The translations under genes and the position numbers were made by a program. A stretch of 64,000 nt of DNA from NCBI GenBank assembly GCA_037445065.1, contig JBBILD010000007.1, positions 128,001-192,000 on the forward strand. Reading direction: 5' to 3'. The notes under the pieces are model-generated. The model was given only the letters and a program-made list of their open reading frames with translations, ran no database searches and was not told where the DNA came from. Positions 11,078 to 31,900 of this stretch are shown here, one piece after another. The DNA is from Myxococcales bacterium (lineage in GTDB: Bacteria; Desulfobacterota; Binatia; HRBIN30). Position 1 is the stretch's first letter, and each line of letters opens with the position of its first letter.

Positions 11078-12268
11078 ATGAGCTGGCGGAAAAAATTGAT
11101 GTGGCTTTCCGTCTTGTACGCGGCGGAGGGTCTGCCCATGGGTGTGTACGCCGATGTGGTGCCGGTGTTTTTGCGCCAGCAGCAGGCTTCGCTCGCCGTG
11201 ATCGGCCTGCTGAGCCTGCTCGGACTCCCCTGGAGCTTGAAGCTCTTGTGGTCGCCGCTGGTGGACCGTTTCCCCAGGTATCAACGTTGGATTGTGGGTT
11301 GTTTGGCCGTGGTCACAGTCTCACTGGTGGTTCTGGCGCAAAACGCCGACGGTGGTGGGCTTCCCGTGGTCTTGGTGGCACTCGGCTTGTTGTGTCTGGC
11401 CAGTGCCACGCAAGACATCGCTATTGATGCTTACTCGATCCAACTTGTAGCGCGCGGGGAAGAGGGAATGGCAAACGGTGTGCGCTTGGCCGCCTACCGC
11501 GTAGCGCTGATTGCCGCGGGTGGGGGAGCCATGTTGTTGGTGCGTCCCTACGGCTGGGCAGTGACCTTCGCTGCCATTGCCGCAGTGACTCTCCTGCTAG
11601 CGGCTACCATTGCCGCCAGCCCGCGCGTGGCGGTTCCTCACAATGCGAGCACGCGAGCATGGGCGGCAGCGCTCTGGCGCTGGCTGCGCCGCCCGGGTGC
11701 GCTTTCTGTGTTCGCGTTTGCCCTCGTTTACAAACTCGGCGATGCCAGCATGGGCCCCATGATCAAGCCGTTTTGGGTGGATCGCGGATTGTCCACGGAC
11801 GAGATCGCCATCGTTTCTACCACGATGGGTGCCTTGGCCACCATTGCTGGTTCGCTTGCTGGCGGCTGGTACACGAGTCGCGCTGGGATTTTGCGCGCCT
11901 TGTGGGTGTTGGGTCTCGCGCAAGCGCTCTCCAACTTGGGGTACGCTGCAGCGGCGGGCTTGGAGGTCGGCCGCGCAGGGATTTACGCGGCATCGGTCAC
12001 GGAGAGCTTTTGTGGCGGCTTGGGCAGTGCAGCCTTCCTGGCCTTTTTGATGCGTGCCTGCGAGCGGGAACGAGCGGCCACCGAATATGCCTTGCTCTCG
12101 GCGCTGTTCTCCTCGGCGCGCCTGTTCGCCGGTGCGCCGAGCGGGTACTTTGCCGAAGCCATGGGTTACGCGGGATACTTTGGTTTTACAGCTGCACTCG
12201 CCCTGCCTGGCCTGTTACTCATCCCACGTTTGGCGCCATGGACCGCGGAGGAACAGCAGTCGTCTTGA
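11078..12268 (+). CDS. ampG: AmpG-family muropeptide MFS transporter
   Basis: LYAAEGLPMG, LPWSLKLLWSPLVDR, SATQDIAIDAY, ATEYALLSAL are AmpG-family signatures. Start at MSWRKK (RBS GGGAGG). Confidence 0.8.
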   Translation: MSWRKKLMWLSVLYAAEGLPMGVYADVVPVFLRQQQASLAVIGLLSLLGLPWSLKLLWSPLVDRFPRYQRWIVGCLAVVTVSLVVLAQNADGGGLPVVLVALGLLCLASATQDIAIDAYSIQLVARGEEGMANGVRLAAYRVALIAAGGGAMLLVRPYGWAVTFAAIAAVTLLLAATIAASPRVAVPHNASTRAWAAALWRWLRRPGALSVFAFALVYKLGDASMGPMIKPFWVDRGLSTDEIAIVSTTMGALATIAGSLAGGWYTSRAGILRALWVLGLAQALSNLGYAAAAGLEVGRAGIYAASVTESFCGGLGSAAFLAFLMRACERERAATEYALLSALFSSARLFAGAPSGYFAEAMGYAGYFGFTAALALPGLLLIPRLAPWTAEEQQSS

Positions 12269-13245
12269 GACACGAGCGCCGGTTTCTGTTGCGGCTTTGT
12301 CTCGTGGTTTATCTGCTGGTCGGGTTGGTTGTTGACCCAGTGGCTAGGGCCCAGCGGGGTCCGCAAACAACCGTGCGCGAGTTCTGCCGTTTGGACGCCA
12401 TGGGCGCGCGAGCAACGCTCCAGGGCTGGCCGCAAGTGGCACCGCTCGTTGCGTGGCCGTCGGAGCCGGCATGGGACCGAGTGGTGCTCATCACCAGCTA
12501 CACGGTGGGCTGGCCCGTCGCGGAAGAAGAGGGACAGTTCGCGATCGAGGTGCGATACGCGGTGCAAGGCGTCGTCACCGCAGCGGGCCTGCGCGAAGAA
12601 GCGCACGTGGAAAGCCGCCTCTTTCGCGTCGCGCCTATGCCCGATGGCTTGTGGCGGATCACAGGGCCACCCCCACCGCCCCACATCTTTGCGCACAACG
12701 CCGACGCCAGTGGCGTGCAACGCTCGTTGGCCGCGGGTGGCGTGAACTTCGTGGCGAATTCGACCTTCGTGCACTGGCTGTTTGGTGAGGCAGGATGGGA
12801 GGTCCCGCTGCTCTCCACCCTGGAATTCGAGCACTCCGATCGCTTCCATGTCGTGAAGGAGCCTCGCCCGGGAGATCTCGTGTTGTACTTTGACGGTTCG
12901 CAGCCGTACCATGTGGGGGTCTTGGAGCAGGAAGGAGTGGTGGTGTCCTCGACGCTGAACGGTGGGGTCGTGCGTACGTCGGTCGAGACGTTTGCCGGCG
13001 AGCGGAAGTTCTTGCGCTTGGTCGAGCCTGAGCCCCTGCCAACGCTAACGCCGACTCCGCTCTTGCCTCGTGCCCTACCTACCTATGCAAGAAAGGCCGC
13101 CAAGCTGCCGGCCCCAGCGCAGCGCCCGCTTTGGAACGCGAGAGCAGCGCAACAAAAGGCGCACAAGCGCGTTTTCGCAGCGAAGCCGGCGGGGAAAACA
13201 TCTACCCCCGCGCGAGAGAAAAAATCGGGAGGAATCGAGCGATGA
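12265..13245 (+). CDS. Exported protein with a degenerate NlpC/P60-like domain and basic Pro-rich tail
   Basis: TTG start overlapping the ampG stop (RBS GGAGGA). N-terminal hydrophobic signal. ANSTFVHWLF...PGDLVLYF...YHVGV aligns with NlpC/P60 DCSGFV...PGDLVFF...HVGI. Confidence 0.6.
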   Translation: MRHERRFLLRLCLVVYLLVGLVVDPVARAQRGPQTTVREFCRLDAMGARATLQGWPQVAPLVAWPSEPAWDRVVLITSYTVGWPVAEEEGQFAIEVRYAVQGVVTAAGLREEAHVESRLFRVAPMPDGLWRITGPPPPPHIFAHNADASGVQRSLAAGGVNFVANSTFVHWLFGEAGWEVPLLSTLEFEHSDRFHVVKEPRPGDLVLYFDGSQPYHVGVLEQEGVVVSSTLNGGVVRTSVETFAGERKFLRLVEPEPLPTLTPTPLLPRALPTYARKAAKLPAPAQRPLWNARAAQQKAHKRVFAAKPAGKTSTPAREKKSGGIER

Positions 13246-16386: not shown

Positions 16387-17421
16387 ATGCGGGTGAGCGA
16401 AGCACAGGGGGACGGAAAGAGCTGCCTTCCACCGGGTGGCCGCGCCAGGGCCCAAACAATTGCCGGCCGCTTCCTGCTGGTTTTGTTGGGCCTGACGAGT
16501 GGTGTTTTGCTGTTAGAGGCGTCCCTGCACCTCCTTGCTTGGCGACTGGGGCGAGACCCCACGCCCGTCCTTGCTGGTCAAGGAAAGACGGTGCTGGTTA
16601 CCGTTGGCGATTCGAACACGTACGGCTTGTACCTGAGGGAAGAAGAGGCCTACCCGGCGGTTCTCTCCCGACTTTGGCGAGACCATGGAGGACGACCGCC
16701 ATTGGCGGTGGTCAACTTGGGTTATCCGGGAATGAATTCCACATTGCTGGCATCGCAGTTTGGCCGGGTCTTGCAGGAGCTTCGCCCGCGGGTGGTTACC
16801 CTGATGCTCGGGGTCAACGATTTCTGGACGATCCCCATGCCCGCACGGGGAGAAGATGCGGCTGTTGAACGGCTGAGGCGTTGGTTTTGGCAGCATGTGC
16901 GCACGTACCGCCTGTTGTACTTTCTGTTTCGTTCGGCCGAGTTGCACCTGGCGCAGGTGCCACAAGATTTGCGAAGGGTGCGGCCTGGAGAGTTCTTCAC
17001 CCGCTGGTCATCTCGTGCGCGTGTGGGCGAGACGGAGTTGCAGTTGGGCTTCGAAGTGGACGCTGCGGCTGAGGCCCCGGCGTCCGTGCGGGAGACGACA
17101 TTGGCTGCAAACCTCGCTGCGATGGTCGAGGAGGCGCGCCGCAGCGGAGCCTGCGTGTTGTTGCTGACGTATGCGGCCGACGGTGGGCTGTATTGGCTCG
17201 CCAATCAGACCGTCCGTCGCCTGGCGGGCGAATTGGGCGTGGGGCTTGTGGATCTCGCTTCCACGTTCGCACCGCGTTGCCCGGTCCGTGTTGAGGGGAG
17301 CTTGGTTCAAGCAAAGTCGCATTGCCCTCAGTATTTGTTCCCGGACCAACACCCGACCGCGCTAGGGCATCGCGAAATCGCACTGCGGTTATTGGAGCCC
17401 GTTCGCTCGTGCTTGCGGTAG
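16387..17421 (+). CDS. Membrane-anchored SGNH/GDSL hydrolase
   Basis: VGDSNTYG, NLGYPGMNS, LGVNDF, DQHPT. N-terminal transmembrane segment. Confidence 0.85.
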   Translation: MRVSEAQGDGKSCLPPGGRARAQTIAGRFLLVLLGLTSGVLLLEASLHLLAWRLGRDPTPVLAGQGKTVLVTVGDSNTYGLYLREEEAYPAVLSRLWRDHGGRPPLAVVNLGYPGMNSTLLASQFGRVLQELRPRVVTLMLGVNDFWTIPMPARGEDAAVERLRRWFWQHVRTYRLLYFLFRSAELHLAQVPQDLRRVRPGEFFTRWSSRARVGETELQLGFEVDAAAEAPASVRETTLAANLAAMVEEARRSGACVLLLTYAADGGLYWLANQTVRRLAGELGVGLVDLASTFAPRCPVRVEGSLVQAKSHCPQYLFPDQHPTALGHREIALRLLEPVRSCLR

Positions 17422-17758
17422 GTCTGCGGCGTTCGCGGCGAGAGCCCGAGCGCGACTCGGCGGAGCTGTGGATGGCTCGGGATGTCCGCGGGTGCGCGAC
17501 GGCCCCCGGGCAACTGGAGAGCGCACGTCCTGCCGTGATCTCATTTGGCTGCTGTATGCACCGGCAGGGTGAAGCGGCCAGACAAGCCCCCGCTCGGGGT
17601 CCCGGTGCGGCGTACTCCCCGAGGCTCCTGTCGGAGTTCCTCAGCGGTCCGTTGTGAATGACTGCGAAGCGTCCCGGAGCGAGCGGACCCGTGACGGGGC
17701 GGGTTATACATCCGCCCTCCGTTCTTTCGGCGCGGAAAAAGGGCCGCTCCAGTGCCGG

Positions 17759-19264
17759 CTACGGGGCTGCTCCCGAGTGGCACTCCCAGCAGGGCCCCCG
17801 CCAATCATCGCCAACGTTGGCCGGGTGCTCGAACTCGAGTCCTTCCTCGCTGCTGGCGAAGCGTTTTTCGCCGGGCGGGCCTTGCGCCAGCACGACGTGG
17901 CATAAGTTGCAATCGCTGCGAATCATGCGGCCGTCCTCAGCTCGGTGGTTTCCAGCATGGCAGCGCATGCAGCCTGGCCAGAAGAGGTGGCTCGAGTGAT
18001 CCGGATACGCATCCCAGCGTATCTGCATTTCGGGGAAAAAGTTGCGCTCGAAAATCCGTTGTAACTCGCTCGCTGCCTGTTCGATGGCTTGCGCCTGGGC
18101 GCGAGCGATCTGCGGGTGATTCTCCTGGTAAAATCCACGCAGGCCATTGGCGATGGCGGGGATTGCTGCTTCGCGCGACGGGTAATCGCCGGTGAGGAGA
18201 TCAATTCCGATCTGTTTGAGCGAGGGCAGGCTTGCGTCCAGGTGCCCGGCCGCGAGCGCGGCGTTGACGGCGTCGCGGGGCGACAGAAAACGGTGTGCCG
18301 GGCGGTTGTGGCAGTCTACACAGTCCAGGCGCCGCCATTGGCTTCCGGCAGGCGGTGTTTCGCCGGCTCCCGCGGCGCGGTAGGTGACCGTCTTGCCAGT
18401 GCGTGCGTCCGTGGCTCGCACCCAGGGGATCGTCGTCCGCTCTGCATCGGCGGCAACGTACTCGACGACGTTTTCCAGCCGCATGTGCCAGTGAATGCCG
18501 CCCGCCTCTGGGCTACCTGGCTCCCCACCGCCGACATGAAGAGCCAGATCGAGATCCCAGCGGCTGTTGCGTTCGTCGGCAAGGAAATACACGTAGCGGC
18601 GCAAGCTAAAACCCAAGTGCTTGGCCGGCCAATGGCAAAGCTCGCAAGTATCTTGGGCGGGCCGTAAGTTGTGGACCGGCACCGGAATCGGGCGCGAATA
18701 CGTATCGGTGAGGAAGGCGTAGAGCTGGCGGGTGCCGTTGAGTTTGGCGCGCAGGTACCAATCGAAGCCCTCCCCCACGTGGCAGTCCACGCAAGCCACG
18801 CGCGCGTGTGGCGAGTGCTGGTAGGCAGCATACTCGGGTCCCATGACTTTGTGGCAGACCGCGCCGCAGAAGGTGTTCGATTCGGTGGCCTCGTAAGCTT
18901 GGAAACTTCCGAAGGCAGAAACAAAGAGAAAACCGAGTAGACCTGCGAGAGCGAGTGCGGTCCGGCGGCGGGTGGCAGCCTGATTCAAGTCGAGCACCGG
19001 CCACGCAAACTCCCAGCCTCGTCCCGTCTTTCGCCAGCGCCGCCAACTCCACCACCAACCGGTCGCGGCCAGTAGCAGGCCACCGATCATCACGAGGGGA
19101 AGGAAAAGGAAGACCACGAGATCTGCGTACGGAGGCGGTGCTTGTGGGGAGACGGTTTCGAGCAGCAACAAAAAGGCAATCGTACCGAGCGCCACGGCCG
19201 CTAACCCGAGGCCAGCGACGGTCAGGGGATTTTTCCAGAGTGTCTTCCGTGGGCTTGGGTTCAT
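17759..19264 (-). CDS. ImcH-like NapC/NirT-family inner-membrane multiheme cytochrome c (3 TM, 7 heme motifs)
   Basis: Three N-terminal TM helices. ESNTFCGAVCH (CX3CH) plus six CXXCH (CVDCH, CELCH, CVDCH, CMRCH, CNLCH, CWECH). SPHARVACVDCHVG and NLRPAQDTCELCHWP resemble Geobacter ImcH. Start MNPSPRK overlaps the upstream stop. Confidence 0.85.
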   Translation of the reverse strand: MNPSPRKTLWKNPLTVAGLGLAAVALGTIAFLLLLETVSPQAPPPYADLVVFLFLPLVMIGGLLLAATGWWWSWRRWRKTGRGWEFAWPVLDLNQAATRRRTALALAGLLGFLFVSAFGSFQAYEATESNTFCGAVCHKVMGPEYAAYQHSPHARVACVDCHVGEGFDWYLRAKLNGTRQLYAFLTDTYSRPIPVPVHNLRPAQDTCELCHWPAKHLGFSLRRYVYFLADERNSRWDLDLALHVGGGEPGSPEAGGIHWHMRLENVVEYVAADAERTTIPWVRATDARTGKTVTYRAAGAGETPPAGSQWRRLDCVDCHNRPAHRFLSPRDAVNAALAAGHLDASLPSLKQIGIDLLTGDYPSREAAIPAIANGLRGFYQENHPQIARAQAQAIEQAASELQRIFERNFFPEMQIRWDAYPDHSSHLFWPGCMRCHAGNHRAEDGRMIRSDCNLCHVVLAQGPPGEKRFASSEEGLEFEHPANVGDDWRGPCWECHSGAAP

Positions 19265-21021
19265 GGGCGCACCGAAAAACCGAGCCGATGAGGGTGGCAG
19301 GTAAAGCACGGGAAGGCAAAGTGCGGCTCACCGCGGCCGTCGTTGCGGAAAAAGCGGGTGGCGCTGTGGCATACCTCGCACAACCCGGAACCTGGGCCGC
19401 TCACACTTGCAAAACTACCGTCCGCAAGGCCGCGTACGTTCTCGAAACGAAGCGGCACGAGTTCGCCGTTTGGCGCGCGCACGAAGCGAGCGAGGAGGAA
19501 CGCGTTGTCGCTCCCGTGGGGGTCATGGCACACCGCGCATTCGGAGGGCGAGCCGGCCCGTGGGTCCTGATGGGTGCGCCGCTCGCTCCCGTGACAGGTC
19601 GCGCAGCCCGTAATCGAGGCGTGGCCGGGACCGTAAGGCGTACCCTCTGCAGCCGCGTGGCAAAGGTCGCATTCGATCTCCAAATTGCCGTGGCCAAATT
19701 CTACCGCGTGCTCCGTGGTGGCGCGGTGACAAAAGGCGCAGGCGCCGAACGGACGCAGCAGAGCATCACCGTGGTTTACGCCGACGAAACTCGGCACGCC
19801 TCCTGCGTCGGGCAGGGAGCGATGCTGCGGGCCAAAGGGTCCAAGTTCCTGTTCGTGGCACAAGAGACAGCCCAGTTCGGCCGCACCGCTGTTGCGCATG
19901 GCCTCGGCCTTGTCGCTGTGGCAAAAAGCACAGGAACCAAAGACCCCTTGCTTGCCCAGTTCGTGCGCGGGGCCGAGAAAAGCGGGCACCAAGCTCGCGG
20001 GCGGGAAGGTGCGGTGGCCCCGGCCGTAGTAGCCCGGGCTAGTGGCCGCATGGCAGACCTCGCAAGTGAGCGAAGCGTGTACTGGGGAGACTGCGGACGC
20101 AATCGAACGATGGCAGAGAGCGCATTCACCAAAGGCAGCTCCTTCACGTGGTGCGTGAGGGTCCGGCTGCCGATCGGGCACCAAATCGGCTGCCGGCAAG
20201 AGGCGGTGCGCGGGGCCAAAGTCCGATGTGGACCCGAGCGGATGGCAGGTGGCACAGGACAACGCGCCTGCCGGACCGAGGAGGGCCTCGAGCGAGCGCG
20301 CCGCTCGGTTGTGGCACAATGCGCAGTCGCCCCAGCTCGCCTCTGCCTGCGGCCGGTGTGGTTCGAGAGCGGGGTCAGGAACTCGCTGCGCCCCCGGCCG
20401 GCTGGCGTGCCCGCGCCCGTACGGCATTCCGGGCACTTCGCGGTGGCAGGTGGTGCAGGCCGTCGCCGCAGTGCCGCCGAACGGCTGTGCCAGGGAAGTG
20501 GCTTGCTCCGCGTGGCACAGGGCGCATTTGCCCCAAAAGGACAGGTCCTGTAAATCGTGCGGGTCGGGTGGCGGATTGGGAACCAGGCTCGGGGCCGGCA
20601 GGCTTTGGTGGTGCGGACCGTACTCAGGAGAGAGGCGCTCGCGATGGCAGTCCGTGCATCGCAGCCCCAGGTCGCCCGTGTTCAAGCTGTTTGCCTTCTC
20701 CGCATGGCAGTACGCACAGCTCCCCATCGCCCTGAGGGCGCCTAGCTCATGACCGCTTGCGGGGAAGGCGGGGACCAAGCTGGCAGCGGGCAGGGCTCGA
20801 TGGCCGCGTCCCACAAACCCGGGCAGCCGTTGCGCATGGCAGGTGGTGCATCGGAGGTCGGCAGCGAAGGGCAACACCTGCTGGGCTTGCGTTTGGTGGC
20901 AAAAAGCGCACTCGCCGAATGCGCTCGCTTCTGCCGGCGGGCTCCCCTGGTACACGGTGCTCCCTGAGTCGCCGCATGCCGCCAGCGTACTGGCGAGCAG
21001 GAGCAAGACCGCGCGCCTCAC
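19261..21021 (-). CDS. 18-heme lipoprotein cytochrome c built from tandem diheme repeats
   Basis: GTG start with AAGGAG RBS. Lipobox TLAA-C. 18 CXXCH counted. Seven ~65-aa repeats followed by a C-terminal CxxCHDPH module. Confidence 0.88.
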   Translation of the reverse strand: MRRAVLLLLASTLAACGDSGSTVYQGSPPAEASAFGECAFCHQTQAQQVLPFAADLRCTTCHAQRLPGFVGRGHRALPAASLVPAFPASGHELGALRAMGSCAYCHAEKANSLNTGDLGLRCTDCHRERLSPEYGPHHQSLPAPSLVPNPPPDPHDLQDLSFWGKCALCHAEQATSLAQPFGGTAATACTTCHREVPGMPYGRGHASRPGAQRVPDPALEPHRPQAEASWGDCALCHNRAARSLEALLGPAGALSCATCHPLGSTSDFGPAHRLLPAADLVPDRQPDPHAPREGAAFGECALCHRSIASAVSPVHASLTCEVCHAATSPGYYGRGHRTFPPASLVPAFLGPAHELGKQGVFGSCAFCHSDKAEAMRNSGAAELGCLLCHEQELGPFGPQHRSLPDAGGVPSFVGVNHGDALLRPFGACAFCHRATTEHAVEFGHGNLEIECDLCHAAAEGTPYGPGHASITGCATCHGSERRTHQDPRAGSPSECAVCHDPHGSDNAFLLARFVRAPNGELVPLRFENVRGLADGSFASVSGPGSGLCEVCHSATRFFRNDGRGEPHFAFPCFTCHPHRLGFSVRP

Positions 21022-21608
21022 TTTGGCGCCCTCCTTTGTACCTGGCGGTGACAGGCTACGCACAGCTCATCCTCAGCGAGGGGAAGGCGCAGGAAGGCTG
21101 TGTTTTGCGGGGCGAAAGAAAACTCCGCGCTGCTGCCCTCTCGAGTCAAATCCTGGCAGCGCGCAAGGGTGGCGCGGCGGATCGCCAACGCGACAGAGTG
21201 ACTCGGCAGTGGGCGCACTGGCGCGAGGATTTCTTCGGCGATGCGGGGATCGTGAAAGAGGTGGCAAGTGCCGCAGTACATGCGGCCGTCTTCGGCAAGG
21301 GGAAGGTTTTGCTGCGCCTCTTCTGGCTCCACTCTTGGCGGCAACAGAGCGGCGACCCGTTCTGGACTGAGCTCCAGGTGTTCTGCAGACCCGCTGTGCA
21401 GCGTGCGGTCGTGGCAGCTCAAGCAGGTCTCTTCTTTCGAGGTTAGAAGATCCATGTCTTCGTTGTGGCAGAGGGCGCACTTTTCCTCGTCTGGCTCGCC
21501 ATCGGCGCGCAGCATCCAGTGCGGATTGTCCTCGTCCTCCGCACGCATCTCTGCGGCCCACAGTCCCGGAACGAGCAAAAGCAGCAAAACCACGGCACGC
21601 AGATGCAT
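21018..21608 (-). CDS. Periplasmic tetraheme cytochrome c
   Basis: Start MHLRAVVLLLLL (signal peptide). CALCH, CLSCH, CGTCH, CVACH. Confidence 0.85.
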   Translation of the reverse strand: MHLRAVVLLLLLVPGLWAAEMRAEDEDNPHWMLRADGEPDEEKCALCHNEDMDLLTSKEETCLSCHDRTLHSGSAEHLELSPERVAALLPPRVEPEEAQQNLPLAEDGRMYCGTCHLFHDPRIAEEILAPVRPLPSHSVALAIRRATLARCQDLTREGSSAEFSFAPQNTAFLRLPLAEDELCVACHRQVQRRAPK

Positions 21609-21931
21609 CACGGCCCCACTCCGTTGCTGCCGTGGCAAGCGGCACAACTTGCCTCTCCTTGGTTGCGCACCAGCGCCCGGATTTCGGTGAGGTCGAGGTC
21701 GGGAATCCCGGTGCGATTGACGAGATGGAGGTTGCGTTGCGGGTGGCAAAAAAAGCAGTCCTGGCGCCCCCACCCGCTCGGATGTTCCTCTTGCACGAGT
21801 TCCAGCCCTGCAGGAGAGGCGAGCAGGTTCCCGTAATCCTCACCTTTCGGACCGGCGCTCTCCCCGCAGGCGAACAGCCAAAGAGAGAGGCACAGAACGC
21901 CACCAAGGTACCAGAACCGCCGTGCTACCAC
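21608..21931 (-). CDS. Small diheme lipoprotein cytochrome c
   Basis: GTG start (RBS GGAGG) within ORF 21608..22273. Lipobox WLFA-C. CFFCH, CAACH. Stop overlaps the next ATG. Confidence 0.8.
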   Translation of the reverse strand: MVARRFWYLGGVLCLSLWLFACGESAGPKGEDYGNLLASPAGLELVQEEHPSGWGRQDCFFCHPQRNLHLVNRTGIPDLDLTEIRALVRNQGEASCAACHGSNGVGP

Positions 21932-22572
21932 GCTCCCTCCACTCCAGCCTGCTCGTGGCAAGCAATGCAGTAGTCCGCCCGGTGGCAGGAGCCACACTCG
22001 GCCGGGTTCGCGCGCGCTTCCACGGAATGGAAGAAGCGGAAGCTGCGCTCGTGCACCTGCGTGTCGATCGTGTCGCGTCGCGCGTGGCAATTCACGCACT
22101 CTTGCTGGCGGTGGCAATCTTCGCAGCTGGCACTGTCCGTACGGGCAATCATGGCGTGGGCGCGCACCCAGCCAGCGTGGTGGTCTTCGGGCAGCAACGG
22201 CCACAGATTCCGATGGCAAACGAGGCAGCGGCTGGGGGCGTTTGCTACCCGCTCTATCCCGGGCAAGTGGCAAGTGTGGCAGGCTTCGGCGCCTGGGCGC
22301 AGGGCAAGGGTGGATAGCGATCGCGCGAGGTCGCTGTCCTCGCTTTCGATGCGCAGGGAGAACTGGTGGCAGTCAACGCAGGCTACACCTTGCTCCGCAA
22401 AGGTCTTGCGGTGGCCGGCGTGGTCGAAGCTGCGCCTCGCTTCCGCCGTGCTCGGGTTACGCAGCGGGGAGTGGCGAGGCTGGAGCCAGGCGTTCGCCGG
22501 GAGCACCTCGCGGCAGGCAGCGAGCACCGTACAAAGCACCATGGCCGTCCCGATCCTCGCGACGTGTTTCAC
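21925..22572 (-). CDS. Heptaheme lipoprotein cytochrome c
   Basis: GTG start overlapping the porin stop (RBS GGGGAGG). Lipobox VLAA-C. CVDCH, CHTCH, CLVCH, CEDCH, CVNCH, CGSCH, CIACH. Confidence 0.85.
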   Translation of the reverse strand: MKHVARIGTAMVLCTVLAACREVLPANAWLQPRHSPLRNPSTAEARRSFDHAGHRKTFAEQGVACVDCHQFSLRIESEDSDLARSLSTLALRPGAEACHTCHLPGIERVANAPSRCLVCHRNLWPLLPEDHHAGWVRAHAMIARTDSASCEDCHRQQECVNCHARRDTIDTQVHERSFRFFHSVEARANPAECGSCHRADYCIACHEQAGVEGAW

Positions 22573-23999
22573 CCAGCCCAACCTCCCCGCAACCGCTCCA
22601 TTTCCGGAAACACTCCACCCCATCCCTCTTCGGGCAGATACCGCCAGCGGTAGGCCAAATACAAACCGACACGGAATTCGTGATCGAAGCGGGGATTGTG
22701 ATTTGCCTCTAGGTGAAATTCGGCGAGCAGGTTTGGGCGCAGCAGGTAGCCGATGCCGAGACGTCCACTGGTCGCTGTGTCGCTGCGGTTGGTCACCTTG
22801 TCGAAGGTGGCGGCTTCCAACTTGGTGCGAAACACGAACCGCTCGTACACCCGGTTCTCGTGATACACTCGCCAGTGATGCCCCCGCCCGCCGGGGCCAT
22901 CGATCAGGCTGTATTCTGCCCGCACTCGTTCGAGCCCGTCTCCCCCGGGCAGCCAGAGGAGCCCGACGCTCGCCAGGTAACCGGTCTCCGTCGCGCCGGG
23001 GCGTGGTTCGTATTGCTGGAGCCCAGCGTCGGCATACGCGGACCAATGGCGGCCGTGATAGTACTGGAGCCCGCCGCGCACCTGCCGCAAGCTACTTGCT
23101 GAGAAGAGAGAGAAGATCGGGTCTGCGTAGCGCTCGAGCTGCGAGAGTCGCAGCGCCGGTGCAGAACGCTGCTCGGGCTTGTAGTAAGCGGCTTCCATCC
23201 TGGCGAACAGACGCGGATGGAGCAAAAACGAGGCGCCAGCGTTGAGGCGCTCGACATTGCGCTCGGCGGTGTCGTAGGAGGCTAGCCAATACAGGTCGGG
23301 ACGAATGCGCAGGCCCACAAACTGGTGGCGGAAACGAAGCTGGGAGAGCTGGCGGATGCGGTGCGCTTCGCGTTCGAGCTGCACGAAGCTGAACCCCACG
23401 ATTCCGCTCCGTCCAATGCGGTAGTGCGTGCTGGCACCGAAAAACTGCTCGTCGCGCGACAGCGAGCCCAGGCGTGGTTGTGGTTCGAAGTACCGAGGCT
23501 GTCCTCCGAAGACCGAAACTGCCCAGCCCACTCCGCGGTCGAAGGTGAGACGTCCAGCATCTGCCACCCAAAACCCGACACCTGCCGTCTCGATTGCCTG
23601 GCGGCCCAAGGAGAACTGCAGGCCGCGCAGGCCCAACTCGGCCCGACCGAGATAGAAGTCCGCATCCGTGTTGGCGCGGCTCCAGTCTCGCTCGGCCCGG
23701 AAGTACGTTTCGCCGCCTGTGTCATGATGGATTCGATCTGCAGCGAGCGCTCCGTAAAGGTTGGTCGGGCTCTCGGCGCGGGTGCCGATGTCCACATCGC
23801 GGACCTGGCCGAGCAGCTCGGCGCTACCCTCCCACTGGGCTGCGTACGCGCCTGTTCTCCCGCTAACAAGCGACCATAGGGCAAGCGGCAGGGCGGCGAT
23901 GCCAATGACAGAGCGAATCCGGTGGCGGGCGGTAGAGAAGTGCGGGCCGCGCCAGCCTGGTGACAAGCGCAGCCCGCGCCACTTAGAACTGCCGCGCAT
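22569..23999 (-). CDS. Putative outer-membrane beta-barrel (porin of a porin-cytochrome complex); start uncertain
   Basis: Signal peptide ending GAYA-AQWEG. Alternating amphipathic strands rich in aromatic residues and Gly (FSLGRQ, VGFSFVQ, VRGGLQYY, LGIGYLL, VGLYLAYRW). No CXXCH. Lies between cytochrome genes. Confidence 0.72.
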   Translation of the reverse strand: MRGSSKWRGLRLSPGWRGPHFSTARHRIRSVIGIAALPLALWSLVSGRTGAYAAQWEGSAELLGQVRDVDIGTRAESPTNLYGALAADRIHHDTGGETYFRAERDWSRANTDADFYLGRAELGLRGLQFSLGRQAIETAGVGFWVADAGRLTFDRGVGWAVSVFGGQPRYFEPQPRLGSLSRDEQFFGASTHYRIGRSGIVGFSFVQLEREAHRIRQLSQLRFRHQFVGLRIRPDLYWLASYDTAERNVERLNAGASFLLHPRLFARMEAAYYKPEQRSAPALRLSQLERYADPIFSLFSASSLRQVRGGLQYYHGRHWSAYADAGLQQYEPRPGATETGYLASVGLLWLPGGDGLERVRAEYSLIDGPGGRGHHWRVYHENRVYERFVFRTKLEAATFDKVTNRSDTATSGRLGIGYLLRPNLLAEFHLEANHNPRFDHEFRVGLYLAYRWRYLPEEGWGGVFPEMERLRGGWAG

Positions 24000-26427
24000 G
24001 AACAGCCGATACCGGGAATGAGCGGCCCTCGGCGTGGCAAACCAGGCAAGCCTCCACACCGGTTGTGGTGGTCTGTGTATCGGCATGCGCTTGCGACGCG
24101 GTGGCGTCGTGGCACGAGGTGCAGGCTGCGGTGATGGGACCAATGCGCCCGCCTTCCACCTCGTTGCCCGTGGTGGGATCGAGATGGGCGCGCCGCGTCC
24201 CGAGCGCGGTGCCGGGGAAAGGCGGCAGGGTGTAGGTGCCGGGCAAGTGGCAAGTGCGGCAGTTGCGCCGATCGCCCGGGAACAAGACTTCCGAGAAATC
24301 GAAGCGAGTGAAGTTCTGTGGCGGCGGGCCGAAGCCATACACGACGTACGGCTTTTGGTGGAGTTCTTCGCCGGTGTGGATTTTGTGGATGAGCACCTTG
24401 AAGTCGATGGTGGCGGTTTCTTCGCTAGCGGCCACGGCCGCGGGGTCGCGGCGGCGCCGTGCGGCGTCCGACTGGTTCGGGTTGTGGCAAACGACACAGG
24501 CCTCCAGCGTATTGCGCAGGTTGCCGTGCACGCTGAAGTCCACGGAGAATTGTCCGTGGCATGAGGCACATTGCTCGTCGCCCACGACCTCTCGCCGTGC
24601 TACCGGGGCTGAGCCATCCACAGTAAACGTCACGAGCGTATTCGGGGCTGCTTCCTGGACCACCTTGGGTTGAATCGGATCCACCGCGCTCAAGGTGACT
24701 TGCCGCCGGGCTTCGCTCACCACCGCCCATGTGCCGGTGGCCGAGGCGGGAATCGAGAACGGCACGGAGTAGCGGAACGTCCCGGACGCATCCGGACCTT
24801 CCACGGTCCCACTCGCGCCGCCGCCTGCGGCAGTGGCCACGAGCATCTCGGTGTAGTCGGTGGTGGGGCCACTGAACGTGAAGGCCAGCCGATTGAGAGA
24901 GGCGAGGCTTTGTAAGGGCGTCCCGGCCTGGTCGGTGACGCGGAAGGAAACAATGGGCGACTCGCCAGCGTTGTGGTTTTCGAGGCCGGTGATTTCGACA
25001 CGGAGGCCGTTCAACTGACGAGAACGCCCCGGCACTACGTGGGCCCCGGCAACCGACACGTCGAACTCTCTACCCGAGTCCGGTTCGTGGCAAAAGCCGC
25101 AATCGCCGTCTTCGAAGCCGCGCGCCTGGAAATGGTTGTGACCCGGTGGGCCCGCATCGCTGGCGCTGGAAGAGGGATTGACGTCATCGTGGCAGGCAAC
25201 ACAGGCTGCCGTGCTGGGGCGAGTGCGGTGGTAGTCCGCGGTGGGACCTTCGGCATGACAGACGGCGCAGTTCTCGATGGCTCGCGGAAAGCCCACGCCG
25301 GTGATCCGGCCGTCTTGTTCCTTGCGCGCAAACACGATGTCTTGACGCAGGAAACTGCTGTAAATCGCGTAGCTCGAACCAGGAGCACCGTTAACGATCG
25401 AAGGCAGTTCCTTTCCCCGGTGGATTTTGTGCACCATCACTCCGAGGTCCACGCTGCGGCCGCGCTCGTCAGTTGCCTCTTGGGTGTGGCAAACGGTACA
25501 GAGACGGAGTTCGCGGCGGTTACCGTGAGCCACCAGGGGATCATGGCACGCGTTGCATTGCGACGTGGTAGACCCGGCTCGGATCACCGGTGGAGAGCCG
25601 TCAGGAACGAAGTCGAACACCGGGTTTGCGGCCCGTTGTACGCCGTCGAGGAGGCGGTCCACCTGCATGCCGACGCTGTAAGTGGCGCCGCTGTTCACAG
25701 GAGCGAAGGTCTTGCGGAAGGTGTACTGGTAAAGCCCGCGAGCAGCGTCAATGGTGGCAAGCGAGCCGCCGGAGTCGTAAGCCGGGCGCGTGCGGTTGAT
25801 CTCGTTCACGTAGCGGGTGAAACGCTGGTGAAACTCGCCGCCACCATCGTATTCTTCGACCCGCGCGAGCGTGAAGCGTACCCGCGCGAGAGACGGATCC
25901 TGGGTCGCAGACAGCACCGGGGTGAGCGGAGCTCCCTGGTCGTCTGTGAGGGTGAACAGCACGCGAAGACTGCCGGCTTCGTCGAAATTCGCAGCGACCA
26001 CGGCGGCCTTGACCCCGGATCCAACCGGCGTCGGCATTGGTGGCAAGGTTGGCGAGGGAAGCGTTGGCGTCGCAGTGGCGGTGGGTGGCGGTGCGGTCGG
26101 GGTTTCCGTCGCAGTCAGAGTCGGCTCTGTTTCCGGGGTGGTCGGCAACGGGGTTGCCGGGCAGCCCGTGAGGGCCTGATTCACGAGCACAATGAGTTCG
26201 TCAACCGTGATGTTTCCGTCGCCGTTGAGATCGGTGCTGGGGCAGCACGTGCTGGGGGGCAGCTCCTGAAGCGACACGTTCACGGCGCACAGGACTTCGT
26301 CTACCGTCACCGAGCCGTCCTCGTTGCAGTCCCCGGGGCATTGTGCCCGCGCGCTGGCACCCGCGATCAGCGCGGCAAACGCCAGCAGTCCAGTGAGCAT
26401 AGAGCAGCGAAGCAAATAGTTTCTCAT
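23983..26427 (-). CDS. OmcA/MtrC-family decaheme cytochrome c with N-terminal dockerin-like domain and Pro/Thr linker
   Basis: Ten CXXCH in two groups of five, each group preceded by a beta-rich domain. MVHKIHRG and LIHKIHTG motifs. Signal peptide ASARA-Q. CPGDCNEDGSVTVDE...DLNGDGNITVDELIVLVNQALTGC. Confidence 0.9.
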   Translation of the reverse strand: MRNYLLRCSMLTGLLAFAALIAGASARAQCPGDCNEDGSVTVDEVLCAVNVSLQELPPSTCCPSTDLNGDGNITVDELIVLVNQALTGCPATPLPTTPETEPTLTATETPTAPPPTATATPTLPSPTLPPMPTPVGSGVKAAVVAANFDEAGSLRVLFTLTDDQGAPLTPVLSATQDPSLARVRFTLARVEEYDGGGEFHQRFTRYVNEINRTRPAYDSGGSLATIDAARGLYQYTFRKTFAPVNSGATYSVGMQVDRLLDGVQRAANPVFDFVPDGSPPVIRAGSTTSQCNACHDPLVAHGNRRELRLCTVCHTQEATDERGRSVDLGVMVHKIHRGKELPSIVNGAPGSSYAIYSSFLRQDIVFARKEQDGRITGVGFPRAIENCAVCHAEGPTADYHRTRPSTAACVACHDDVNPSSSASDAGPPGHNHFQARGFEDGDCGFCHEPDSGREFDVSVAGAHVVPGRSRQLNGLRVEITGLENHNAGESPIVSFRVTDQAGTPLQSLASLNRLAFTFSGPTTDYTEMLVATAAGGGASGTVEGPDASGTFRYSVPFSIPASATGTWAVVSEARRQVTLSAVDPIQPKVVQEAAPNTLVTFTVDGSAPVARREVVGDEQCASCHGQFSVDFSVHGNLRNTLEACVVCHNPNQSDAARRRRDPAAVAASEETATIDFKVLIHKIHTGEELHQKPYVVYGFGPPPQNFTRFDFSEVLFPGDRRNCRTCHLPGTYTLPPFPGTALGTRRAHLDPTTGNEVEGGRIGPITAACTSCHDATASQAHADTQTTTTGVEACLVCHAEGRSFPVSAVHARQF

Positions 26428-26618
26428 CTCCGACCCCCTTCGTTTGGCATCGCTTCATCGCAGGGCGCGCCTTTTGTTCCCTTGCCCACGACCCGAGTAT
26501 CCTCCGGTGTGTGACTCATGCCTTGAGCTTCCACAACCAGGAAAACTTGTGAAGCGGTGTACTGTATTTCTTCTCTTTCGATGTTCAGAACACCTTGGAA
26601 TTCTGGTAAGCAGCGCGT

Positions 26619-28811
26619 GTGATGAGGAGCGGGGCTTGGGTCGTTGCGCTAGCCTCGGTGGCCTTGCTCTGGGCGGTACCGAGCCACGCCTTGCGTTGCG
26701 CAGGGGACTGCGACGGGGATGGTGCGGTGACAGTCGAGGAGCTGGTCACGGCTGTGGCGATTGCCCTGGGCGAGCAGTCCGGAAGCAGGTGCCTGGCGGT
26801 GGACGGCAATGGCGACGAGCAGGTGACCGTGGACGAGATCGTGCGCGCGGTGCGCGTTGCGCTCGAGGGATGCCCGCAACCGATTGTGTACTACGACCGA
26901 GACGACCCGCGCCGCACGAACCCCTTCCCGGATGACTTTTGGCTGGTCGAGGACGCAGCGCAGCGCACCGGCGTACGACTGAATGTGGCAGCGCCGCCGG
27001 CACCGTCGGATGTAAGCGGCATCTTGCGCCTCCTCTTGCGGGAGACCAACCGCTTGGACGGCTTCAGCCCGATCGCTCACTTCGTGCTGGAGCTGAGCGA
27101 AGCCCCTGATCCGCGCAGCTTGCCCCTCACACCGGCGGAGTCGCTCGAGCGGGGGGCGAGCGTGGGTCTGTTCGACCTCACACCGGGGAGCACGAACTTT
27201 GGCTCGCGAGTGCCCGTGCGCGTGCTGGTGCGCGACGATACGAGCGTGCTCGGAGTGCGCACCCATAGCTTGTTGATTTTTCCATCCATCTCGCTCACTC
27301 CGCGCGGCCGTTACGGACTAGTCGTCTCGACGCGTTTGCGCACGCTGGGGGGCGAGCGGTTTGGCCCCTCCCCGTTTTTCCGGCGTGCGCTGAGCGCTCC
27401 GGTCAGCGGGGAAAGTGCAGCGGTGCAAAAAGTTCGGGCGTTGAGTAGCGAGGTGCTGTCGGCGGTGGGGGACTTCGAGCCGGAGGTACGCGACGATGCG
27501 ATTCTCGCTGTGCGCATTTCGGTGCGCAGCGTGGACGATTTGCCGCGCGACCTGCTCGCCATCAAGGAGCAGGTGCTGGCGGCGCCGCCTCCATCCTTCG
27601 AGGTCCAGAGTGTTCAGGCAGAAACCAATCCTTTGAGCCCGGTGGCAGCGGTGGTGCGAGGAGTATGGAACGCCCCCGATTGGCGGGACGGCTTGTACTT
27701 GAGCCGCGACAGCAACGGCACGCCGCGGGTCACAAAGACCAATCGCGTGCCGTTCGTGCTGGCGCTGCCGCGAACCAGTTTGTTCTCCCCCGTCCCAGTC
27801 ACGATGTACCAGCATGGCAACCCAGGAAGTGCGGAACGCGAGGTTCCGGGTGAGGCGCGGGAGTATCTGGCGGAAGCTGGGTTCGCGGTGGCCGGGTTTA
27901 CCGACAACTTGAACCGCGAAGTCAGCGCCGGCATTTCCAACTCGGAAGAAGCGATTGCGCGCCAAGTGACTGCGGTATTTTTCGCCTTGGTGCAGGATCG
28001 CCGCATCCCGGACTACTGGACCGAGCTGAATGGCGAGCAAATCGCCTTCGTGCGGCTGTTGCAGAGCATGGGCTCCCTCGACGTCCTGCCCGTAGGAGAG
28101 CCCGACGGAGTGCCCGAATTGGATACCGGGGCGCCACTCACGTATGTCGGGATCAGCCAAGGTGCCAATTATGCGCCCGGCCTGCTGCCATACGCGCCCG
28201 AGATCAAGGCGGCGGCACTGGTGGTCGGCGGAGCGCGGTTGATGGAGACCTTGATTCACCAGCGCCCCGACGACTTCGTTCGCTTGCTGGGACAAGTGTT
28301 TCCAAACATGACTGCCGCCGACATTTGGATGGGCCTGTCGCTCTTCCAGCACAATTTCGACCGCCAGGACCAGCACAACCACGCCCGCTTCCTGTACCGC
28401 GAGCCGCTCGCCATCAACGGGATCACCCCTAAGGCGAGTATTCTTCTCATCGAGGGTCTGGAGGATTCCCTCGTACCGAACCACGCAACCGACGCGCTGG
28501 CTTGGCTGATGGGACCGTTACCGCACTTGCGACCGATTGCGCGTCCTGTTCCGTTTCTCGCCGCTGCGGACCCACCCATTCGCGGTAACGTAGACGAGGC
28601 GACTACGGCCGCGTTTTTCCAGTACGTACCGGCAGGGGTCCCTGGGCTGCCGCCCACACCTGGTTGCGCGGTGCTTGCCCCGACAGTGGGCTCCGAAGGC
28701 CACTATTGTGCACAAGCGGCACCCGAGTCGCGGCGGCAGCGCTCGATTTTCTTGCGCTCTGCGCTGCTGCCGGGAGCGCCGGAGATCGTGGATCCGTTCG
28801 CACTTCCTTGA
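26619..28811 (+). CDS. Secreted dockerin-like domain + alpha/beta-hydrolase (lipase-like)
   Basis: Signal peptide (PSHA-L). CAGDCDGDGAVTVEE...DGNGDEQVTVDEIVRAVRVALEGC. PFPDD, LDGFSP, YQHG, nucleophile GISQG, EDSLVPN and a C-terminal His (EGHY). Confidence 0.78.
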   Translation: MMRSGAWVVALASVALLWAVPSHALRCAGDCDGDGAVTVEELVTAVAIALGEQSGSRCLAVDGNGDEQVTVDEIVRAVRVALEGCPQPIVYYDRDDPRRTNPFPDDFWLVEDAAQRTGVRLNVAAPPAPSDVSGILRLLLRETNRLDGFSPIAHFVLELSEAPDPRSLPLTPAESLERGASVGLFDLTPGSTNFGSRVPVRVLVRDDTSVLGVRTHSLLIFPSISLTPRGRYGLVVSTRLRTLGGERFGPSPFFRRALSAPVSGESAAVQKVRALSSEVLSAVGDFEPEVRDDAILAVRISVRSVDDLPRDLLAIKEQVLAAPPPSFEVQSVQAETNPLSPVAAVVRGVWNAPDWRDGLYLSRDSNGTPRVTKTNRVPFVLALPRTSLFSPVPVTMYQHGNPGSAEREVPGEAREYLAEAGFAVAGFTDNLNREVSAGISNSEEAIARQVTAVFFALVQDRRIPDYWTELNGEQIAFVRLLQSMGSLDVLPVGEPDGVPELDTGAPLTYVGISQGANYAPGLLPYAPEIKAAALVVGGARLMETLIHQRPDDFVRLLGQVFPNMTAADIWMGLSLFQHNFDRQDQHNHARFLYREPLAINGITPKASILLIEGLEDSLVPNHATDALAWLMGPLPHLRPIARPVPFLAAADPPIRGNVDEATTAAFFQYVPAGVPGLPPTPGCAVLAPTVGSEGHYCAQAAPESRRQRSIFLRSALLPGAPEIVDPFALP

Positions 28812-28853
28812 CGGGCTTCTCCGAACGGCACGGAGGGGTTCTAGAGAATGCTT

Positions 28854-28890
28854 GCCCGGGGCTCTCCCACGGCGGGGAGAAGCCCCGGGC
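28854..28890. terminator. GC-rich hairpin between convergent genes
   Basis: gcccggggctctccc / gggagaagccccgggc inverted repeat with one bulge, in the 120-bp gap between convergent stops. No U-tract. Confidence 0.45.
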
Positions 28891-28930
28891 TGCTAGCTCG
28901 GGGCGTTAGCGCGGCTGGTAGAGAGGTCGG

Positions 28931-31900
28931 TCAAGTGAAATGCAGGTTGCGGTAGGTCCGGAACAACTGGGTTGTTGCTTGCCGGGAGGCCCCCACGAAG
29001 GTCACCTCGCCTCCGACGGCTTGGTGAATGACGAAACGGAAGGGGGCTCCTAGGGGACCTCGGAAGAGGTGCGTTCCGGGAAACATGTGGCCGAGCGCGT
29101 GCTGGTCTTGCAAGAAGTGCGAAGCAGCTCCGAGAGCCTGCAGTTTGTTGTCACCTGTCACGATGCCATCGAGCGCAGCTCGGTAATTCTCCGCGGCCGC
29201 CCCACTAAAGTGCCCCTGGTTGTTGAGTGCGGCCCACCATTGGCGGTACCACGGTTCACCGAAAGCATCCTGGGCGAGATTGTTGCGGACCAGGATTTCT
29301 GCCTCGAAACCGTTGTAGCCCGCATCCAAGGCCGCCTCGCGGGTGATGTCGGCGTGCGTCGCGGTGTCGCTGGCCGGGATGATGCCTTCCCGTGCGGGTT
29401 CGAAGCCGCCTGGGTTCAGGATCTTCTGGTCGAAGTAGGCGGATGAGAAAATCCCGGCAGCCGCGGCGCCCAGTTTGACCAGGTCACCGGGCAGACCGGC
29501 TCCATTGCCGATCTCTTGGGTGGCGTGCGAGGCGACTGTACTGAAAGCCGAGCGCACAGCCACTACACGCAGAGTGTTCACCGCTTGTGCAACGCTGATG
29601 CCCTGTGCGGCGGAACCAGCAAGCGAAGAGATCACCATGTTGGCCGTCGCCGCCACTACTCCTAGGCCTACGCCGACAGCTCCCGCGATCGCGCCGCTAA
29701 TGGCAGCCTTTCCGATTTGGCTCAACGGCAACCCTTGAGCCGCAGCGGCCATGGCACTGATCGCAGCCGAGAGAACCGCGGCGACCAGTACCGCTATGAG
29801 GATTTCTATGAACTCGCCATTGGCGTCCGTCAAATTGGTCGGATTCCACGCCGCGTAGGAGTACGGGTTGAAGAACTGGCGCGCTGGATCGTGGCTTTGG
29901 AACATGGCGATGTCCGAGTCGTAAAAGCGCGCGCCGGCGTAGAGTAAGCCGCTCAATGGCTCGCGCTGGTACCCGGTAAAGTCGCGGCACGCTCGTACGT
30001 CGCCGCAGGCGAGGCCGGAGAGTCGCCGGCCATCGGCGCTAAAGTATCCGATGAGCCCGCCAAAGGGGGCGAAGCGGATGTGGGCCATCACAGCGCCACT
30101 GTCGCTGGTAATCATTTCTGTCGAACCGACGTGGTTCAGGTGGTAGTAGGCGAACTCGCTAGGTAGCCCCTGCGCGGCAGTTGGCCGAACCAGCAAGGGC
30201 CACGGGAAGGTCGCAAAAAAGAAGACCATTGCGACCAGCGCGATGCGCCCGCGCCCGACCTTGCCCAGGAAGGAAAGGCGGGTGCGGCTGGGAGCGATCC
30301 ACAGGCATGCGATGAGCGTGAGGCCGAGCAAAGCGAACACGGGTGCGGCATCGGGGCGGACGACGACTTGCAGAAAGGGAATGCCCTCGGCCGTGCGGGA
30401 GGCGAGCAGGCGGATTGCGGCGCGCCCGGGCGCACTGGCAAAGGCCGGGTTGGTGGCTTTTTGCGAGGCGAGCAGGATCTTGCCGGCAAAGTAATATTTG
30501 GTCAGGTAGCCGTTTTCCGCCTCGGCCAGGCCGAAGTAATTCCGAGTCCACGGACCACCACCATTACGCATGCCGATGCGATTGCCGGCTTGGTCATAGG
30601 CAAATTCGACCGCACCGCCGTCCACGCGAACCAGTCGATTTTCGGCGTCGTACTCGTAAGTACGGTTTGCGTTGCGGATTCGGTTCCCGTTCGCGTCGTA
30701 TTGCACCAGGTGTTCCAGCCCGTCCACAGCTACGACTTGGTGCGGGCGCTGCCGCGTGTAGAAGAGGGTGCTTCCCTCTTTTTGAACCAGGTTCCCGAGC
30801 GGATCGTAGGCGTACTCCAGATCCGCGTTCGCTCCTGGTAGGTGCACGGCGCGCAAGCGGCCAAGCCCGTCGTAGGTGAACGCCGCGCTGCGATCGAGGT
30901 CGGGTACCGCCGGCGCGTTCGGCTCGCTGAGCGTGGCTAGGAAGCCGTTGGCGTTGTAGCTCGAGTAGTTGAGTTTCTGCAGGATTTGTCCCGCGCGCTC
31001 ACTCCGGCTCGAGGACAAGCGGAAGTTGTTGGAGACGTCCGCGTACTCGCGCACGTCACGCACACCGTTGCCGAGGAGCAATTCGCGCGGCCGTGCGAAC
31101 ATGTCGTAACCGATGCGGCGGGCGTACACCCGCTGTCCGATGACCGCATACACTTGGCCAGCCGGGTCGTAGCGGTAGCGGACCCGCTCGCCGTCGGGGT
31201 AGGTTACGGAGGCAATGTTGCCGGCTGCGTCGTACGCCCAGAGGAGTGTGCCCCTTGTGTCAGGCTCCCCGGGCAGGCTGAGGGTCACCTGGTTGGCGAC
31301 CGGGCGCCCGTGCACGTCGTAAAAAGTGAGGTTCGTTCCGGTGGCTTCGTACACGGCGGTAAGCCGCGAGACGGCGCCGCGCGGATCCAGATTCGGGAAA
31401 TCGGAGGACACCCAGACGTGGCGGTCGTACTGGTATCGCACGTCCGGCCGCGGGTCGTCGCAGCGGTGCACGTACGAATCGCCGCTCGAGTAATACTTGG
31501 CGATGAGTCGCCCCAGAGCGTCGTAACAGAGGCTGATGTGGCGGCCACTGGCCGGATCGTTCACGTAGACCAAATTGCCGTTGGCATCGTACCCGTATTG
31601 CCACACTCCGGAGTTCGGATCTTCGCGCTGGACCAAGAGCCCGCGGGAGTCGTACGTGAAACGGCTAGCGGTGGCGGCGTCCCACACGCCTGGGGCGGTC
31701 CCTTGGAGGGTTTCCAACACACGACCGAACGCGTCGAAGCGGCTCGCGGTGGCCTGCAGGAAGCGGTCCCCGCTGCGCGTCGTCTTCTCTACGACACGAC
31801 CGAAACCGTCTCGCTTCTCCAGTGTGCGTGCCCCTTCACAAGTACCGGCATTCGTGCAGGGGTCGATGGTTTCGACGGACCACGCTGCCGGGTACTCGAA

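Follow-up and report, generated by a model that had tools for sequence, protein, structure and literature searches.

The porin-cytochrome conduits of Shewanella (Mtr) and Geobacter (Pcc) have been described as unrelated, independent solutions. The closest described system, the OmbB-OmaB-OmcB complex of Geobacter, moves electrons across liposomes, and in the Pcc family at large the porins have 18 to 22 strands (PMC4245776). The adjacent cytochrome of the family carries 5 to 14 hemes, and the outer cytochrome is variable and optional. MtrC of Shewanella contains a CX8C pair that limits peroxide formation in air (PMC9973256), and ImcH, which has seven hemes and three membrane helices, is used for acceptors above -100 mV (PMC13591261). 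The operon described here, located at positions 17759 to 26427 on the minus strand of a 64,000-nucleotide window from a Binatia genome (HRBIN30; assembly GCA_037445065.1, contig JBBILD010000007.1), combines an OmbB/OmaB-type pair with an OmcA/MtrC-family decaheme cytochrome and an ImcH ortholog. By analogy with these relatives, it probably forms a single outward conduit from the quinone pool to external solid acceptors. By its core the operon belongs to the Pcc family, in which it is divergent, and it falls outside MtrCAB; its parts are ordinary, their combination is unusual.

Six-frame translation upheld the first-pass annotation of this DNA in its count of seven co-oriented, overlapping genes with 48 heme motifs. 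In transcription order, the seven open reading frames (ORFs) hold 10, 0, 7, 2, 4, 18 and 6 CXXCH motifs, and gene 7 adds one CX3CH motif (CGAVCH), giving 47 CXXCH and one CX3CH within 8.7 kb. All six junctions overlap (by 17, 4, 7, 1, 4 and 4 nucleotides from gene 1 to gene 7), figures which depend on the start codons picked in this analysis, and from these overlaps alone the seven genes would appear to be co-transcribed. The operon accounts for 47 of the 71 CXXCH motifs among the 16 ORFs with at least two such motifs in the source genome, of which it is the sole large multiheme cluster; this concentration, together with the conserved gene order, argues against a chance clustering of the motif. 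Signal peptides and transmembrane (TM) segments were assigned by eye, without a predictor, and a lipobox cysteine was seen in genes 3, 4 and 6. Conservation counts refer to close loci, i.e. the 20 that were retrieved out of 34 barrel loci. The features of the operon are:

23983..26427, minus strand: gene 1, OmcA/MtrC-family decaheme cytochrome of 814 amino acids (aa) (TIGR03507, PF22113 and PDB matches)
26161..26340, minus strand: dockerin-like double EF-hand domain with CxGDC motif, within gene 1 (weak EF-hand/Dockerin_1 matches below cut-off)
22569..23999, minus strand: gene 2, outer-membrane beta-barrel, remote OmbB homolog (AlphaFold2, hhalign, reciprocal hidden Markov model (HMM))
21925..22572, minus strand: gene 3, 7-heme lipoprotein, OmaB homolog (hhalign, reciprocal best match, shared motif, lipobox)
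21608..21931, minus strand: gene 4, small diheme lipoprotein, a conserved adapter of no known family (present in 20/20 loci)
21018..21608, minus strand: gene 5, tetraheme cytochrome with a plain signal peptide (20/20 loci; generic c3/paired-CXXCH matches)
19261..21021, minus strand: gene 6, 18-heme lipoprotein with diheme repeats (repeat decomposition; 4 to 22 CXXCH across 20 loci)
17759..19264, minus strand: gene 7, ImcH ortholog, NapC/NirT-type inner-membrane cytochrome (41% identity to ImcH; PF03264)

The only heme-free gene of the operon, gene 2, matched no Pfam or NCBIfam family. Its start is the least certain of the seven; the ATG at 23999 gives a 55-residue leader and a mature part of about 421 aa. 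In the AlphaFold2 model (25-row alignment; predicted local distance difference test (pLDDT) 85.7, predicted template modelling score 0.78), 22 long consecutive strands were counted from the DSSP string, and, judged by this string and the pLDDT, the predicted structure bears out the small transmembrane beta-barrel that had been proposed. A phylum-wide search with the gene 2 alignment matched 47 of 301 genomes, the source genome included, in a search set whose phylum grouping includes Geobacter. Among the 20 of the best distant loci that were retrieved, several belong to Geobacter, one of them with a neighbour named OmcB. To avoid circularity, the barrel profile was rebuilt from the 27 close sequences only. 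This HMM matches Geobacter barrels over model positions 9 to 414 (E 1e-15 to 1e-17 among 2,104 ORFs) and, at E<=0.01, finds one to three loci in each of 11 out of 12 Geobacter genomes. In one of these genomes (G364) both matches are identical 403-aa barrel genes located upstream of 231-aa octaheme genes and of OmcB and OmcC, proteins bearing the G. sulfurreducens names. The names OmbB and OmaB are applied here to genes that carry no such database label, because their position beside OmcB/OmcC fits PMC4245776 and PMC6148476. Within G364 the HMM found at the same threshold only the ombB/ombC loci, ExtB and ExtE not having been compared directly.

Profile comparison (hhalign) of the gene 2 set with the OmbB set gave 99.6%, E 3.6e-24 over 385 columns at 16% identity, and in the reciprocal search with an OmbB HMM gene 2 was the only match among 37,760 ORFs of the source genome (E 8.6e-6). 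PDB sequence searches found no relative of the Geobacter OmbB-type barrel and none of gene 2, for which only two designed barrels appeared (E 0.26 to 0.28). A wholly new barrel family was rejected in view of the remote full-length OmbB homology, and an unplaced standing of the barrel and its partner was not supported. At this level of remote homology, gene 2 represents a new subfamily of Pcc porins.

The partner of the barrel is encoded by gene 3, a homolog of which follows the barrel gene in 20/20 close and 19/20 distant loci, the 20th distant locus ending at a contig edge. Alignment of gene 3 with the OmaB set gave 98.95% and E 1e-17 over 136 columns, and the reciprocal search with OmaB returned gene 3 as the best match (E 1.9e-12; next 0.057). 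Since CXXCH content inflates cytochrome profile scores, a motif with residues beyond the heme sites was checked. This motif, chosen after the alignment was seen, is common to gene 3 and OmaB and absent from the other five cytochromes, OmcB and ImcH; among multiheme ORFs it occurs in 19 of the 104 from close loci and in 10 of the 58 from distant loci, every one of them directly after a barrel gene. The lipobox cysteine of gene 3 is invariant (21/21 rows), and small barrels with lipoprotein partners are known (ExtF, ExtCD; PMC6148476). In a PDB search with the gene 3 profile, only nitrite reductase was found (E 3e-4), which was read as CXXCH similarity. The suggestion that a lipoprotein cytochrome stands in for MtrA did not hold, as gene 3 belongs to the Geobacter Pcc family, and its product is likely, from its sequence kinship, to be the cytochrome inside the barrel.

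Gene 1 confirmed the predicted MtrC-type decaheme with a score of 379 bits against the OmcA/MtrC model TIGR03507 (cut-off 209) and a match to PF22113; in PDB sequence searches it matched MtrF (E 5e-22), UndA and MtrC. OmcB has no TIGR03507 match at E<=1e-5, so that the outer cytochrome of this operon is not of the OmcB type. From its N-terminus the protein runs through a plain signal peptide and a dockerin-like double EF-hand to a Pro/Thr linker, which is followed by an MtrC-type body. Read by eye, it has no lipobox in the source genome, and the N-terminus of MtrC among 19 relatives carries a lipobox in 12 and a dockerin-like domain in 7. Neither a CX8C pair nor any other Cys pair outside the heme motifs is present in the 20 aligned decahemes, the body being free of non-heme Cys. 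EF-hand and Dockerin_1 matches of the dockerin-like domain are weak and below the Pfam cut-off. Its CxGDC motif recurs in 24 ORFs of the source genome, N- or C-terminally and often beside Pro/Thr linkers. The domain likely replaces the lipid as surface anchor or export tag of the decaheme, judging from this exchange of N-termini.

The CxGDC double EF-hand may mark a lineage-wide surface-display or secretion system. Upstream of the operon, a divergent gene (26619-28811, plus strand) encodes a secreted-looking 730-aa protein with a dockerin-like domain and no family match beyond EF-hand, and a dockerin-bearing gene occupies the same divergent position in loci L032, L034, L035 and L072-L074. Further on, a 2,294-aa ORF (28931-35815, minus strand) resembles an RHS/YD-repeat protein with a variable C-terminus. 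No Rfam family matched within positions 16500 to 29500 of the window, and no sigma-70-like promoter was seen. Terminator-like sites (13 versus 7.8 +/- 3.6 in shuffled sequence) were not used as evidence. A scan of the genome contigs with a single protein gave one weak match.

At the inner-membrane end, gene 7 is 41% identical to the protein named ImcH in G364 (residues 9-500, E 6e-124), which agrees with the ImcH-like assignment made at first. It matches PF03264, has a NapC/NirT N-terminal region and seven heme motifs, and a PDB sequence search revealed no relative. Two loci without ImcH nearby (L036:321-4107 and L037:2-4163) hold a second cluster a few kb from the operon, with 18-, 11- and 7-heme genes and a NapC/NirT-like N-terminus; it is possibly an alternative quinol oxidase.

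Genes 4 and 5 are kept in all 20 close loci. Gene 4 (45-78% identity) has no Pfam or NCBIfam family over cut-off, and gene 5, likely a periplasmic carrier, has no specific family over cut-off and generic c3/paired-CXXCH matches only. In L044 (9362-10145) two diheme ORFs stand in place of the tetraheme gene, through an apparent frameshift or assembly error. Gene 6 comprises six tandem units of 64-67 aa (approximately 19753-20922), each with two CXXCH and two further His, followed by a conserved C-terminal 6-heme core. Across the 20 loci it holds 4, 6, 7, 12, 14, 16, 18, 20 or 22 CXXCH, and its repeat pattern makes it likely to be an extensible bis-His wire of adjustable length. In L050, gene 6 (10012-12408) forms a fusion with a Pro/Thr linker and an additional domain that bears one further heme, and the place of MtrC is taken by a 9-heme protein (4198-7158) containing a collagen-like Gly-X-Y stretch.

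The barrel was matched in 34 of 60 relatives (34/51 genomes of the same order, 0/9 other genomes of the same class), which are kin rather than independent samples and in many cases fragmented assemblies. The order of barrel and 7-, 2-, 4- and n-heme cytochromes is present in 20/20 close loci, with MtrC directly upstream of the barrel in 19. ImcH lies within the retrieved stretch in 11 of the 20 (seven directly downstream, three upstream of MtrC, one convergent) and was found in 21/34 barrel-bearing genomes. As a conserved unit the complete seven-gene set was rejected, with ImcH near the barrel in only 11/20 loci and not found in 13/34 genomes. Of 61 metagenome loci, 17 do not extend far enough upstream; in 37 of the remaining 44 the gene before the barrel is MtrC, a count made by eye that includes some near-duplicates. 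The larger clusters of L052, L054 and L057 combine a barrel with a 7-heme protein that shares 35-40% identity with gene 3, 20-23-heme cytochromes and gene 4 homologs (gene 5 homologs in L054 and L057); MtrC is absent from them, and they likely represent a sister architecture.

The absence of MtrA and MtrB noted earlier was corroborated: the best score for MtrA/DmsE (TIGR03508) in the operon is 30.8 bits against a cut-off of 192, and MtrB (TIGR03509) has no match in the source genome (97.7% complete) or in 25 genomes of the same family. The gene 2 barrel is therefore the only porin partner in sight. MtrB was over cut-off in 4 of 61 genomes, none of them barrel-bearing, while the barrel-bearing G051 has sub-cut-off fragments; TIGR03507 was over cut-off in 35/61. 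Among the 20 distant loci, the TIGR03507 scan covered L059, L061, L065 and L067 only, and in these four a protein over cut-off lies beside a Pcc-type barrel, in L061 directly in the OmcB position. The four loci belong to other Desulfobacterota, and their barrels fall on different branches of the barrel tree (quick, midpoint-rooted and read with no claim on donor or order of events), possibly by repeated MtrC capture. Since TIGR03507 proteins also adjoin distant Pcc barrels outside the order, the hybrid is recurrent.

In the source genome, genes for cytochrome c maturation and GspD score over cut-off, and there are four genes of the heme-copper oxidase (COX1) family. Apart from the operon, no cytochrome with at least six CXXCH and no second decaheme ORF were found in it, and no PpcA-like triheme was seen by eye. 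A pentaheme encoded about 10 kb from one COX1-family gene resembles ActA of alternative complex III. The host would seem to be an aerobe, or a facultative anaerobe, that possesses a single conduit. The lineage, given initially as probably Binatota, is supported as a lead by the nearest atlas cluster of the barrel (0.98), mostly Binatota among the 15 members with a phylum, and by Table S6 of PMC9671151.

To the observed homologies, heme counts, gene order, conservation, repeat structure and anchor swap, the proposed mechanism adds binding, the location of each lipoprotein, direction and substrate, all taken over from tested relatives. ImcH would oxidise quinol, and the tetraheme, the diheme lipoprotein and the repeat lipoprotein would ferry electrons through the periplasm, replacing PpcA-type shuttles, to the OmaB-like 7-heme protein seated in the 22-strand barrel. 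The decaheme, presumably exported by type II secretion and held by lipid in relatives and by the dockerin-like domain here, would take the place of OmcB and, under oxygen limitation, reduce Fe(III)/Mn(IV) oxides, humics or electrodes.

Several observations weigh against this outward conduit. Barrel and OmbB share 16% identity, pairwise BLASTP is not significant (E 0.01), beta-barrel profiles can align through repeats alone, and in the quick 64-row tree the 27 close barrels form their own clade (support 99), far from OmbB. MtrC is absent upstream in 1/20 genome and 7/44 metagenome loci, ImcH is not found in 13 of the 34 barrel-bearing genomes and found in 8/26 without the barrel, and the decaheme has no lipobox in the source genome, which leaves its surface location putative. 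The futalosine marker PF02621 was not found in the source genome. Finally, the four oxidase genes and a decaheme without CX8C fit inward use as well. The same conduit could be run inward, with electrons from Fe(II), reduced humics or partner cells passing to the quinone pool and the oxidases of an aerobe. The ActA-like pentaheme near one COX1-family gene and the lack of a CX8C pair in 20/20 decahemes are in keeping with this, and porin-cytochrome conduits are known to run both ways (PMC5566968). However, the tested members of the OmabcB, MtrC/OmcA and ImcH families all serve reduction, and oxidising conduits are mostly without an MtrC-type head (PMC4245776), which makes inward operation quite unlikely.

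Another arrangement would place the decaheme outside the pore complex, as a loosely attached accessory like OmcA, with gene 6 as the outer, OmcB-like head. The outer cytochrome of Geobacter loci is the large lipoprotein encoded after the OmaB gene, genes 2-6 occur in 20/20 loci while L050 has another protein instead of MtrC and L119 and L121 have MtrC at a different position, and a length variation of 4 to 22 hemes may suit a surface wire better than a periplasm of fixed width. On the other hand, the MtrC gene abuts the barrel gene in most loci, TIGR03507 proteins adjoin Pcc-type barrels in 4/20 distant loci (with L061 in the OmcB position), and a source genome without obvious periplasmic shuttles leaves a gap for gene 6 to fill; this arrangement is considered unlikely. 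That the cluster is not respiratory, serving as electron sink, redox sensor or assimilatory metal reductase, seems highly improbable. It is a single multiheme cluster in an organism with aerobic equipment, and some Pcc clusters are found in organisms that do not reduce metal oxides (PMC4245776), but a set of 48 hemes with a quinol oxidase linked to it points to high flux, and no transporter or regulator gene lies inside the operon. The outward conduit built on an OmbB/OmaB-type pair is retained as the probable reading. A wider interpretation is possible, if held tentatively: an OmbB/OmaB-type pore with an MtrC-type cap might recur across Desulfobacterota as a third architecture and predominate in a whole order of Binatia, the textbook conduits being interchangeable modules, and the self-contained operon might swap diffusible shuttles for an adjustable diheme-repeat lipoprotein wire and allow a dockerin-like tag to stand in for the lipid anchor of MtrC.

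That heads and pores of Mtr and Pcc mix would follow from a natural MtrC-on-Pcc hybrid, and the operon supplies a ready-made chimera with which to test the demands of a terminal reductase on its pore. Neither BLASTP with OmbB nor Pfam or NCBIfam detects the barrel, and surveys demanding the full MtrCAB drop such genomes; as a consequence, about two thirds of the genomes sampled in one order have an electron-export potential that is uncounted. With its 4 to 22 hemes, gene 6 provides wire physics and engineering with a natural series of lengths, and the operon, reaching from quinol to surface within 8.7 kb, is a compact candidate for transfer into laboratory hosts. If the wider interpretation is true, widespread Binatia of soil, sediment and hot springs would be overlooked metal or electrode respirers.

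The first-pass annotation had proposed an undescribed hybrid system. The combination is real, and no description of an MtrC-on-Pcc architecture was found in the literature searched, which left subscription journals mostly and supplements largely outside its scope; the parts, however, are known, and the heme series has been tabulated. In a hot-spring paper, a Desulfobacterota_B genome is called a potential iron reducer with 'MtrABC' genes, and Table S6 lists for a Binatia HRBIN30 genome consecutive genes with 6, 18, 4, 2 and 7 hemes and, after one gene that is missing from the list, a decaheme that bears the label MtrC (PMC9671151). This signature of the operon is tabulated there, with only MtrC recognised, and not interpreted. 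The lineage, regarded at first as not established as electroactive, has thus been flagged once, from its MtrC, as a potential iron reducer (PMC9671151). The main text of the Binatota survey (PMC8262859) is without 'Mtr' or 'extracellular electron', and term searches of PMC8805035, PMC11492766, PMC12545173 and PMC9386147 gave no MtrC-on-Pcc cluster. PMC11492766 reports MtrC-like proteins without a link to porin operons, although the legend of its Fig. 5 names MtrC/F among cytochromes in porin operons with the porin type unnamed. Supplements of other papers may list such loci. The survey of Shaw et al. kept only genomes with the full MtrCAB and treats the pathways as separate, and 'Binat' and 'OmbB' are absent from its main text (PMC12133095).

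Among described systems, the Desulfobacterota that possess Mtr, Omc and Pcc together (Shaw et al., PMC12133095) share with this genome MtrC-family genes, often apart from mtrAB. The operon shares with Shewanella MtrCAB a TIGR03507 decaheme, sequence likeness to MtrF, UndA and MtrC and the position of the decaheme gene as first in the cluster. It differs in a dockerin-like domain instead of the lipid anchor, and without MtrA/DmsE, a 26-strand MtrB/PioB barrel or a CX8C pair, membership of MtrCAB was rejected. With PCC3 and PCC4 (He et al., PMC5566968) it has in common one envelope-spanning cluster, repeat-rich multiheme wires and an inner-membrane partner. PCC3 porins reach 42 strands and the PCC3/PCC4 partner is a 5-TM cytochrome b-like protein (PMC5566968), in contrast to 22 predicted strands and a c-type ImcH here. 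Membership was rejected: no 5-TM protein with two HX13H motifs was found in the operon, the only heme-free gene encodes the barrel, and the membrane cytochrome is ImcH. Geobacter ExtABCD and ExtEFG likewise have small barrels (18-21 strands) and small lipoprotein cytochromes (PMC6148476), with no MtrC-type head described for them, unlike the present operon.

The closest system is the Om(abc)B/Pcc conduit of Geobacter. Shi et al. may have shown some of the distant loci as Pcc clusters and left their kinship with MtrC unremarked. Barrel (385 columns) and barrel-adjacent cytochrome are homologous to those of Geobacter, in the same order and of similar size, and the 22 predicted strands fall within the published Pcc range (PMC4245776). 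OmaB has eight hemes and is soluble, whereas gene 3 has seven hemes and a lipobox; the outer cytochrome is of the MtrC family and encoded upstream, in place of OmcB. Relative to OmbB-OmaB-OmcB, the operon adds three cytochrome genes and ImcH, the latter with the same pattern of six CXXCH and one CX3CH as Geobacter ImcH and 41% full-length identity to it. While imcH lies about 560 kb from ombB in G364, the ImcH gene is located here inside the conduit operon.

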